DNA of 64,000 nucleotides from a bacterium (GTDB lineage Bacteria; Patescibacteriota; Microgenomatia; UBA1406; GWC2-37-13): contig JAJYIQ010000003.1 in the NCBI GenBank assembly GCA_021789995.1, positions 7,767 to 71,766 of the forward strand, written 5' to 3'. Within the stretch, counting starts at the first letter, position 1; every line of letters starts with the position of its first letter. The position numbers were made by a program, and so were the translations under genes. Below are positions 17,177 to 46,405 of the stretch, in pieces. A model generated the notes under the pieces. It ran no database searches, was not told the DNA's origin, and worked only from the letters and a program-made list of their open reading frames with translations.

Positions 17177-17317
17177 ATTAAATGGCGATTTGCCGAAGTG
17201 ATTTACCGCCTGATTCTGCAGTAAACCGGTTACAAGCGACTTGAAGCAGACAAACACGGTTATATTAAGTACATTATTGCTCCCCCGAGAGGATTCGAAC
17301 CTCTAACCTCGAAGTTA

Positions 17318-17834
17318 CACTTGCCTTTTTGTTACCAAAAAGAGTGGACTATTTCATCCAGGTATCATTCGATATCTGGTCGGGTGTATAGTCTCTACAC
17401 ATTTTCCTTCGACGATGCTCAGGATTTAGCTCGAGATTAACCTCCGAATCGGAGGTCTTCCTCGAATTAGCCCGATTTTTCCTTTCCGAATTACTTCGGA
17501 AGGCTGCAAAATGCCGGCATGAATTTCTCTATGACAATTGGAACAAACCAAAATGCATTTATTAAGTTCCTTTTTAGTCCGCTCCCAAGATCTGGTTATT
17601 CCATCTTTCGAAAGACCAAAATCTTTCTTGTTTTCATCTAAATGATGAAAATCCAGAGCCGCTTGGCATCGTCTATAGCCACAATTCATGCATCTTCCAC
17701 CTTTATATTCAATCGCTTGTTCCCGAATTCTTTTACGTCTTCGGGTAACTGCCATTATCAAATATTCGCGGCGGTCGGCATAAGTCCTCTTTTCTGACAT
17801 AATCTAATTATAGTCAAAAAGCGACATTAGTGTT
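17318..17834 (-). mobile_element. group I intron (IC3-like core) carrying an HNH ORF in the P1 loop
   Basis: Elements on the minus strand:
- IGS GCAGCCUU (17500-17507), which pairs with the exon end GAAGCUGU through a U.G wobble.
- P2 CCGAA-GUAA-UUCGG (17486-17499).
- P3 UCGGG/CCCGA (17471-75 / 17380-84).
- P-like AAUUCGAGG, a P5 hairpin CCUCCGAUUCGGAGG, and Q-like AAUCUCGAGC.
- R GUGUAGAGACUAUA (17387-17400).
- A P8 hairpin (17358-17379).
- S GAAAUAGUCC (17346-17355).
- P9 CUUUUUG-GUAA-CAAAAAG.
- Terminal G at 17318. Confidence 0.75.
17426..17800 (-). CDS. HNH homing-endonuclease-like protein (intron-encoded), 124 aa
   Basis: CMNCGY...LDFHHLDENKKDF...LVCSNCHREIHAG is the HNH/zinc-finger motif. 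The 3' end of the ORF overlaps the intron core P3-P5/Q. A TATAAT lies 6 nt upstream of the ATG. Confidence 0.8.
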   Translation of the reverse strand: MSEKRTYADRREYLIMAVTRRRKRIREQAIEYKGGRCMNCGYRRCQAALDFHHLDENKKDFGLSKDGITRSWERTKKELNKCILVCSNCHREIHAGILQPSEVIRKGKIGLIRGRPPIRRLISS

Positions 17835-17847
17835 ACAGCTTCTTGCT

Positions 17848-18111
17848 CTACCGTTGAGCTACAGGGGAAATTAAATTTTTAAGGTACTCACGACCACGAT
17901 AACTTTTTAACTGTTTTTCTCTGATTAGCACTTTATTTCTACTGTCATGCTCTTCTTTATAAAACAGTTCCCAAATTCCATCAAACCTATTCGTATAGCA
18001 GCTTTTAAATTCATGTGTATTATATAATTTTATTCGTAAATCTAAATCTTTAGTTTGACCAATATAGATTTTCTTATGCTTCTTGTTGTAAATTGCATAT
18101 ACATAATACAT
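17848..18111 (-). CDS. GIY-YIG (URI-domain) nuclease family protein, 87 aa
   Basis: YVYAIYN...KIYIGQT, LRIKLYN and REKQLKSYRGREYLKN. It is a paralogue of the ORF at 262-510. It has no stop of its own. The last 6 codons plus the stop are tRNA-Asn nt 1-21 (TCC CCT GTA GCT CAA CGG TAG). Confidence 0.85.
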   Translation of the reverse strand: MYYVYAIYNKKHKKIYIGQTKDLDLRIKLYNTHEFKSCYTNRFDGIWELFYKEEHDSRNKVLIREKQLKSYRGREYLKNLISPVAQR

Positions 18112-46000: not shown

Positions 46001-46405
46001 GGGGATGATAGGAATCGACGAGGAATCGGCACTTTTAAAAAATGTCAGGGCGCACCTGTTGCGTCAAACGGAAAAAATACTTGATAAAGAATCATCTTTG
46101 TCCCAAGCTGATGTAGCTTACTTGCAAGCGGTTAAGTCTGGTTTCAGACTTAACTATGCATACGCTGCTTAAGCGCGGCTGTTTGCAGTTTTTGTCCGAT
46201 TCAATCTGCAAATAGATAAACCAATCGGAATAGGATGACCGGAAGTTTTTGGTTGATCCGGAAGTCCGATAAACCCTCAACCAACAATCTATATACGGTT
46301 TGAATATTCCCCAAAATAGATTAGAGTAAAAAATATTCTATCCCTGGCTAAATTTTTTTCGAAGTGTTTCCCCGGACGCGGGTTCAATTCCCGCCATCTC
46401 CACCA
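46001..46405 (+). ncRNA. ssrA: tmRNA (ssrA)
   Basis: The 5' end is GGGGATGATAGGAATCGACGAGG. The 3' end is GGACGCGGGTTCAATTCCCGCCATCTCCACCA, a tRNA-Ala-like acceptor/T arm. The internal tag frame ends ...FRLNYAYAA-TAA (stop at 46170-46172). The resume codon cannot be fixed by eye. Confidence 0.9.

Follow-up and report, generated by a model that had tools for sequence, protein, structure and literature searches.

Introduction

Group I introns that carry an endonuclease gene inside a bacterial tRNA gene are known from cyanobacteria, where the tRNA-fMet intron encodes I-Ssp6803I in Synechocystis PCC 6803 (Bonocora & Shub 2001, cited in PMC3984707). The tRNA-Ile intron of Azoarcus is 205 nt long (PMC13168695). 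Here, we describe a 517-nt group I intron that interrupts a tRNA-Asn(GUU) gene between U35 and U36 and carries an open reading frame (ORF) for an HNH endonuclease. It lies in a 64-kb stretch of a patescibacterial contig (JAJYIQ010000003.1, assembly GCA_021789995.1), and the whole of this stretch is referred to below as the window. We consider it very likely that this is a mobile, self-splicing group I intron at position 35/36 of a bacterial tRNA-Asn(GUU).

Self-splicing introns have also been reported from the Patescibacteria, or candidate phyla radiation (CPR); in this group, rRNA genes are interrupted by group I introns that encode LAGLIDADG proteins (Brown et al. 2015, cited in PMC7143001 and PMC4736985). 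A methods paper mentions in a passing remark that some CPR tRNAs have group I introns that hamper their detection (PMC8172020), and its supplements contain nothing on a tRNA-Asn intron. The paper describing tRNAscan-SE 2.0 discusses fMet and Ile2 tRNAs split by group I introns, and not Asn (PMC8450103). In phages, the free-standing endonuclease SegB of T4 is located among tRNA genes and preferentially cleaves inside a related phage's tRNA-Asn gene (PMC2330249). In the full-text literature, which leaves subscription journals mostly uncovered, our searches turned up no account of a group I intron in tRNA-Asn or of its HNH gene. The family of HNH-bearing tRNA-Asn introns is hence undescribed in the literature searched, although such an absence is not proof.

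The split tRNA-Asn gene and its splice site

The tRNA-Asn(GUU) gene runs from 17868 to 17280 on the minus strand; all coordinates below are minus-strand positions of the window, unless the plus strand is stated. In its default mode, ARAGORN reports no tRNA at this location, and the whole window yields tRNA-Pro, tRNA-Met and a transfer-messenger RNA (tmRNA) only. With introns allowed, the same program finds tRNA-Asn(gtt), gives its intron as 517 nt and its junction as gctgt-Intron-taact, and places it at exactly the coordinates where a preliminary description of this DNA, made from its sequence alone, had placed two tRNA-Asn halves 517 nt apart. Joining the exons at 17835/17317 gives an Asn(GUU) cloverleaf in ARAGORN with the 7-nt loop CUGUUAA, as that description had predicted. 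In bacterial tRNAs, a G73 discriminator and a U1:A72 pair are features of tRNA-Asn, not of tRNA-Thr. Both are present in the window tRNA (UCCCCUG...CGGGGGA-G) as well as in all 79 tRNAs of the family, and together with the anticodon GUU they bear out the Asn identity proposed earlier.

To compare this locus with its relatives, we used two sets of loci that encode a relative of the HNH protein. The first (L001-L080) comprises the best 80 of 552 loci found in a scan of one genome per species across 185,579 species, and the second (L081-L160) the best 80 of at least 558 viral loci in IMG/VR. In 78 of the 80 best genome loci, tRNA-Asn is split at the identical site, and in 76 of them the ORF is inside the intron.

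Within the Asn gene, U17835 (U35) stands opposite guide nucleotide G17507 in a U.G wobble, followed by G-C, U-A, C-G and G-C pairs. The 5' exon ends in CUGU in 79/79 family members, all of which fit the pattern CUGU/intron...G/UAA, and two intron-less relatives (L059 and L075) read CUGUUAA. The first intron nucleotide also covaries with the 5' neighbour of the guide G (G:C in 37 introns, A:U in 33, G:U in 4, U:A in 1 and unpaired in 4). The splice site between U35 and U36, which the preliminary description had derived from the wobble pair with the guide, is therefore where sequence, ARAGORN and family-wide pairing agree. Because GU is repeated at both junctions, an enumeration of splice registers (17838-17831 against 17321-17314) leaves two candidates, Asn (17835/17317) and Thr(UGU) (17837/17319), both with a 7-nt loop; only in these is the last exon nucleotide a U and the last intron nucleotide a G. 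ARAGORN labels 27 relatives as Thr, Tyr, His or Ser, with Thr accounting for 22/80 loci (19 UGU and 3 CGU). These tRNAs start with U and end in ...GAG or similar, and we regard the labels as artefacts of the repeated GU.

The ribozyme core and its covariation

RF00028, the single group I model in Rfam, matches 17520..17325 over its full length (model positions 1-253) at 77.4 bits (E 6.4e-18), compared with a gathering score of 50 bits. It is also above this score in 15 of the 18 intron loci examined. The search of the insert with this model had been suggested in the preliminary description, and all of the core elements named there are present in the sequence (Table 1). As a whole, the arrangement described there goes well past what chance would give. 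The ribozyme part of the window intron comprises its 3' 190 nt and is the shortest of 79.

We counted covariation on a hand-drawn P2-P9 structure, using an alignment of 73 distinct introns from the guide sequence to the terminal G. The guide was assigned in relatives as GCAG followed by two pyrimidines, and the controls were 500 partner shuffles and slid partners. In the alignment, 95.2% of cells pair, compared with 72.4% when partners are shuffled and 32-45% when they are slid. Compensatory changes occur in 36/47 pairs, and 0/500 shuffles reach any of the observed measures. All pairs of P2, P6a, P8 and P9 covary, while compensatory changes are found in 5/6 pairs of P4 and 8/9 of P6. The long-range helix P3 also covaries: pair 38:228 is CG in 33 introns, UA in 30 and GC in 5, and pair 39:227 takes all four Watson-Crick forms as well as wobbles. 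P7 hardly varies in the 73 introns (99.5% paired); its covariation is uninformative for this reason, but such invariance is as expected for the guanosine site.

In most family members, two additional hairpins follow the 5' strand of P7 and precede the 3' strand of P3 (alignment columns ~169-221; for example, 1786-2010 in L031). The compact members that lack them are the window intron, L034, L043, L046 and L049. RNAalifold, applied to the core alone, paired the guide with the 5' strand of P3 and missed both P3 and P7. We discarded this fold, as the guide/P3 pairing is an artefact of leaving out the exon.

Table 1. Coordinates of the tRNA-Asn gene, its intron and the elements within it
Feature	Position	Strand	Description and basis
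tRNA-Asn(GUU) 5' exon	17835..17868	-	34 nt, positions 1-35, ends ...GAAGCUGU; ARAGORN with introns
Group I intron	17318..17834	-	517 nt; ARAGORN, RF00028 match inside
Leader with sigma-70-like candidate promoter	17801..17836	-	Scan, 10/12 matches
HNH endonuclease ORF	17426..17800 (including stop)	-	124 residues, in P1 loop; ORF list
Internal guide sequence (3' strand of P1)	17500..17507	-	GCAGCCUU; sequence; GCAG invariant in 73 introns
P2 hairpin	17485..17500	-	6 bp, GUAA tetraloop; sequence; 6/6 family pairs with compensatory changes
P3	17475-17471 with 17384-17380	-	UCGGG/CCCGA; encloses P4, P5, P6 and P7 5' strand; Rfam alignment
P4	17465-17460 with 17436-17431	-	Rfam alignment
P5	17457-17439	-	Rfam alignment
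P6	17430-17399	-	Rfam alignment
P7 5' strand	17395-17389	-	GAGACUA, A17394 bulged; Rfam alignment
P8 hairpin	17358..17379	-	Rfam alignment; 5/5 family pairs with compensatory changes
P7 3' strand (S element)	17346..17351	-	UAGUCC, pairs with GAGACUA; presumed guanosine-binding helix; Rfam alignment
P9 hairpin	17342-17325	-	GUAA loop; sequence; 6/6 family pairs with compensatory changes
3' tail	3' of P9 to 17318	-	GCAAGUG, terminal G at 17318; G before 3' exon in 79/79 introns
tRNA-Asn 3' exon	17280..17317	-	U36 to discriminator G73, CCA not encoded; ARAGORN, sequence

The HNH reading frame

The ORF fills the P1 loop and runs into the core, as originally described. It reads through the guide, P2, P3, P4 and P5, and its UAA stop lies where P6 begins, 82 nt beyond the guide G. 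The HNH motif is followed by a conserved Leu-Gln-Pro, encoded by the guide itself (uuGCAGCCu), so that the constraints on RNA and protein coincide at the guide. Past Leu-Gln-Pro, the protein is a read-through of the ribozyme with variable length; across loci, the distance from the guide G to the stop codon ranges from 13 nt to over 100 nt, and in the window the last ~28 codons (from guide to P6) are of this kind. Because ORF and ribozyme overlap, translation and ribozyme folding would be mutually exclusive on any one transcript.

The assignment of the protein as an HNH endonuclease, also made in the preliminary description, is backed by the PHROG profiles. The window protein matches the HNH endonuclease family phrog_2255 at E 2.8e-28, along with eight more PHROG HNH families. 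Its match to the Pfam HNH model is weak; among 27 relatives, 19 match this model at E up to 0.01. NCBIfam gives no match for the protein. Judged on 27 diverse HNH relatives, the residues C37, C40, H53, C86, N88, C89, H90 and H94 show no variation, and H52 shows hardly any. The four zinc cysteines, arranged as two CxxC pairs (C37/C40 and C86/C89), are present together with the catalytic His and the Asn of the HNH motif. An AlphaFold model (predicted local distance difference test score, pLDDT, 80.6) shows a long N-terminal helix followed by strand-helix elements as expected of an HNH fold, with a folded domain of ~97 residues and a C-terminal tail of low confidence. The Foldseek matches listed from the PDB are nearly all HNH nucleases, including the Cas9 HNH domain, the Gme HNH nickase, Cap5 and T5 SciA, although no match reaches significance. 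A profile of the family searched against the PDB gave weak matches to the endonuclease domain of a group II intron maturase (E 0.026) and to McrA (E 0.056). Neither this search nor Foldseek revealed a close solved structural relative.

The HNH ORF is under purifying selection. Across 76 ORFs, differences amount to 0.32, 0.20 and 0.59 for codon positions 1, 2 and 3, and the ORF is intact in 76/77 loci. The single disrupted copy (L042) has a TGA at the invariant Trp codon of the TRSW motif, which could be the mark of a pseudogene, a sequencing error or the use of UGA as a sense codon.

The family leader, from the 5' splice site to the ATG, is only about 30-40 nt long. In the window, a promoter scan finds a -35 element (GTAACA, 17836-17831) and a -10 element (TATAAT, 17812-17807) separated by an 18-nt spacer, with the -10 element ending 6 nt before the ATG at 17800. 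The leader matches TATAAT at 5/6 positions or better in 50/77 loci, usually 6-9 nt upstream of the ATG. The -10-like hexamer (TATAAT or TATACT) has a TG in front of it in about 27 loci, as in TGnTATAAT. This suggests an intron-internal promoter giving a leaderless or near-leaderless mRNA. As the motifs are consensus matches in related, AT-rich sequence, we treat this promoter as hypothetical.

Distribution in bacteria

The preliminary description considered an ORF-bearing intron in tRNA-Asn to be unusual. This did not stand, as the window intron is one copy of a very widespread family, with HNH homologs in 552 species genomes. In a collection of metagenome and genome proteins, the homologs form 3018 protein clusters; most are ~110 residues long, and the best 120 are 65-80% identical. 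The hosts are mostly CPR bacteria (Levyi-, Woese-, Falkow-, Magasanik-, Uhr-, Doudna- and Andersenbacteria, Saccharimonadales, Paceibacterota and others). Hosts outside the CPR are represented by a Pyrinomonadaceae chromosome (5.5 Mb) and by one contig each of Blastocatellia (2.9 Mb) and Nitrospira (88 kb). The nearest named relatives are metagenome-assembled genomes (MAGs) of Levyibacteriota and Saccharimonadales, and the window locus itself, identical over the ORF, is present on two further assemblies (ENA metagenome contigs).

Many CPR-type loci (L001, L004-L006, L009, L012, L014 and others) come from MAGs titled 'uncultured Gammaproteobacteria bacterium'. In addition, a 3.2-kb contig labelled Methylomirabilota (L051) has exons identical to those of a Doudnabacteria locus (L038). 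Taxonomic labels or bin assignments look unreliable in some cases.

Free-standing copies beside tRNA-Asn

Not all relatives of the HNH gene are found inside an intron. In L046 (1501-2090) and L070 (1501-2155), a free-standing HNH gene is located directly upstream of a tRNA-Asn with an ORF-less intron. These introns, of 210 and 244 nt, respectively, occupy the same insertion site as the ORF-bearing ones, and their P1 loops measure 8-10 nt exactly where the others hold the ORF. In L059 (1380-2000) and L075 (1501-1915), the HNH gene is upstream of an intron-less tRNA-Asn. In L059, the ORF is also preceded by the degraded remains of a 5' exon-intron junction (GGTAGAGCAATTCGTTGT/GGAACATT), and the tRNA is followed by an incomplete repeat of its anticodon loop and 3' half; this looks like the trace of an intron loss or a rearrangement of the locus.

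The relatives in IMG/VR are found inside phage tRNA arrays, and the best 80 share 45-64% identity. A tRNA-Asn(GUU) lies within 300 nt of the HNH gene in 49/80 of these loci. The nearest downstream tRNA is Asn in 29/54 cases and the nearest upstream one in 20/44, although Asn makes up only 68/633 of the tRNAs in the same 80 loci. In one of them (L139), the stop codon of the ORF overlaps the first bases of the tRNA-Asn. We also considered whether the phage copies are intron residents, and rejected this because RF00028 has no match in 20 viral loci chosen for having no obvious adjacent tRNA-Asn. Among cultured phages, 448 records contain relatives, annotated simply as HNH endonuclease. Bacillus phage Bastille (NC_018856.1, 5857-6685) has the order tRNA-Asn, HNH, tRNA-Asn, and in Cronobacter phage CR3 (NC_017974.1, 145846-146292) the HNH gene follows 18 nt after tRNA-Asn. 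In the crAss-like phage DAC15, the HNH gene is in a tRNA array with no adjacent Asn. The HNH protein family as a whole is tied to tRNA-Asn genes, as expected if the tRNA-Asn gene is its DNA target.

The gene thus occurs in four arrangements: in a phage array, beside an intron-less tRNA, beside an ORF-less intron and within the P1 loop. Perhaps the HNH gene and tRNA-Asn together form one mobile module, of which these arrangements are natural intermediates in the joining or parting of endonuclease and intron. We offer this reading tentatively, and would put its chances at somewhat under even.

Proposed mechanism and alternative explanations

The data show the split tRNA, the group I core, the pairing of P1, conservation and covariation throughout the family, and selection on the ORF; from the anatomy of the locus, we infer the following course of events. 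The intron is probably self-splicing, by the usual two-step route of group I introns. P1 would form between the exon end ...GCUGU and the guide GCAGC, which lies 327 nt downstream, placing the U35.G wobble at the cleavage site, and an exogenous guanosine bound in P7 would then attack after U35. In the second step, the terminal G (17318) would replace this guanosine, and the freed 3'-OH of U35 would attack before U36, joining the exons in a tRNA of 72 nt whose loop reads CUGUUAA. At best, the window intron can form 2 bp of P10. Given this weak P10, the exons are probably held together by pairing of the anticodon stem, by analogy with the Anabaena tRNA-Leu intron, for which Zaug and colleagues are said to have found in 1993 that exon pairing in the anticodon stem does the job of P10. 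The HNH gene, with its own -10 element near the ATG, may be expressed from within the P1 loop as a leaderless mRNA. Its product would most likely nick or cut an intron-less tRNA-Asn close to the insertion site, and repair would then insert a copy of the intron (homing). The distribution across phyla and the linkage to tRNA-Asn in phages provide indirect support for homing.

Several observations weigh against a mobile, self-splicing intron. The window protein reaches only 17.5 bits with the Pfam HNH model (PF01844), under the cut-off of 21.4, and its Foldseek matches are weak (best E 0.065, TM-scores of 0.4 or less). P1 contains only 4-5 exon base pairs plus 1-2 intron pairs. The exon side of P1 is almost fixed across the family, and exon position 31 shows no covariation with the guide (G:C in 65, A.C in 11 and C.C in 3). 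In the window ribozyme, the two extra hairpins of most relatives are missing, and the third pair of the basal P6 stem is U:U. ARAGORN in default mode finds no second tRNA-Asn gene, but its search covered only the 64-kb window.

The alternative that survives best is that the intron splices but is immobile and vertically inherited, with the HNH protein kept for some other role, such as helping in splicing as a maturase or acting as a general nuclease. Decay is frequent among purely selfish homing genes, yet this ORF is under purifying selection and intact in all but one locus; the overlap of ORF and ribozyme couples protein and RNA, and the free-standing copies adjoin intact tRNA-Asn genes that are evidently not destroyed. 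The nuclease motif residues are invariant, though, and intron and ORF occur together in unrelated phyla (CPR, Pyrinomonadaceae, Blastocatellia and Nitrospira), which fits horizontal spread. Close phage relatives also adjoin tRNA-Asn far more often than expected within tRNA arrays. LAGLIDADG proteins are known to act as maturases, which HNH intron proteins are not known to do. Overall, we find an immobile intron unlikely.

It is also conceivable, but very improbable, that the window copy is a dead relic, leaving a split tRNA-Asn pseudogene, with a functional intron-less tRNA-Asn elsewhere in the genome. The view of the genome is limited to the window, and the copy does have the smallest core of 79, without the hairpins of most relatives, as well as a mismatched anticodon-stem pair (A27.G43) and the non-canonical pair in basal P6. 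The same mismatch is found in L005, however, and a compact core is shared with L034, L043, L046 and L049. The window keeps all columns that are invariant in the 73-intron alignment (by definition, as it is part of that alignment), and its Rfam score is well over the gathering score. Its exons fold into a complete cloverleaf with Asn identity elements, its ORF is intact, and the locus recurs, ORF-identical, on two further assemblies.

Finally, a splice register two bases upstream (after U33, with the intron ending at G17320), which would give tRNA-Thr(UGU), can practically be dismissed: it too has a 7-nt loop, an exon ending in U and an intron ending in G, and 22/80 loci are called Thr by ARAGORN, but U33 would face a guide A and lose the U.G wobble, the covariation of the first intron nucleotide exists only in the Asn register, and U1:A72 with G73 (unlike tRNA-Thr) and CUGU/...G/UAA in 79/79, together with CUGUUAA in the intron-less L059 and L075, show the Asn register to be the correct one.

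Significance and neighbouring features

The authors of tRNAscan-SE state that their tool is not designed for tRNAs split by group I introns (PMC8450103). Standard tRNA finders miss such genes, and carrier genomes consequently appear to be without tRNA-Asn, an apparent lack that matters for completeness checks of CPR genomes. Judged against the few that are known, this may be among the most widespread bacterial tRNA introns outside the cyanobacteria, with the HNH homolog present in 552 species genomes from CPR lineages, Acidobacteriota and Nitrospira. If HNH gene and tRNA-Asn do form a mobile module, the decoding of Asn in hundreds of CPR species with reduced genomes would depend on the self-splicing of a ribozyme in their only tRNA-Asn gene. 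The coexisting arrangements provide a testable natural series for the association of an endonuclease gene with an intron. The window copy is convenient for splicing assays, as its 190-nt ribozyme part is the smallest in the set.

Another ORF (17848-18111, minus strand) encodes 87 residues with a GIY-YIG domain (Pfam E 1.7e-13; TIGR01453, 'group I intron endonuclease', is matched weakly), and its last 21 nt overlap the 5' end of the tRNA-Asn gene. We considered it as a part of the intron element and rejected this, since the same arrangement is found in 1/80 loci (L020, 1174-1443); it seems to be a separate, possibly mobile nuclease gene. Further away, the window contains a tmRNA gene (46001-46405, plus strand; Rfam 102.6 bits) whose predicted tag peptide, DKESSLSQADVAYLQAVKSGFRLNYAYAA, is unusually long.

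Comparison with known systems

The preliminary description held that the known bacterial tRNA introns are ORF-less. This is true of the introns in Azoarcus tRNA-Ile, Anabaena tRNA-Leu(UAA) and Agrobacterium tRNA-Arg, but not of the cyanobacterial tRNA-fMet intron, which encodes an endonuclease. The three ORF-less introns share with the window intron an insertion in the anticodon loop, a core of ~200 nt and a short P1, while the window intron differs in its host tRNA, its site (35/36) and its 327-nt P1 loop with an ORF. Most of its relatives, unlike these compact introns, also carry the two extra hairpins described above. The window ribozyme is similar to those of Azoarcus and Anabaena. L046 (210 nt) and L070 (244 nt), the relatives whose introns lack an ORF, fall in the size class of the compact tRNA introns; the Azoarcus intron also has GNRA loops on P2 and P9, and the compact P2-P9 layout of the window intron resembles it. 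The known bacterial tRNA introns belong to subgroup IC3. The GUGUAGAGACUA segment of the window is presumably the same as in Azoarcus.

HNH endonucleases inside group I introns are familiar from phages, in the form of I-HmuI (SPO1) and I-TevIII (RB3), which probably nick or cut near the insertion site. Their introns are in protein-coding genes (DNA polymerase and nrdB), with the endonuclease genes in other loops, and the likeness to the HNH protein described here is one of description. The free-standing relatives beside tRNA-Asn in phage arrays are mirrored by the placement of SegB. SegB differs from the HNH family in being a GIY-YIG enzyme that cuts near the 3' end of the tRNA gene and has no association with an intron.

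The CPR rRNA introns share with the tRNA-Asn intron their host group and the presence of self-splicing introns in essential structural RNA genes, but their hosts are rRNAs and their endonucleases LAGLIDADG proteins, compared with a tRNA and an HNH protein here. The closest precedent is the tRNA-fMet intron with I-Ssp6803I, likewise a group I intron in an anticodon loop that carries an endonuclease gene. Its host is tRNA-fMet rather than tRNA-Asn, and I-Ssp6803I is a PD-(D/E)XK enzyme, not an HNH one. The distribution of the tRNA-fMet intron is also narrow, covering a few cyanobacteria, compared with the 552 species genomes that hold a homolog of the HNH gene described here.

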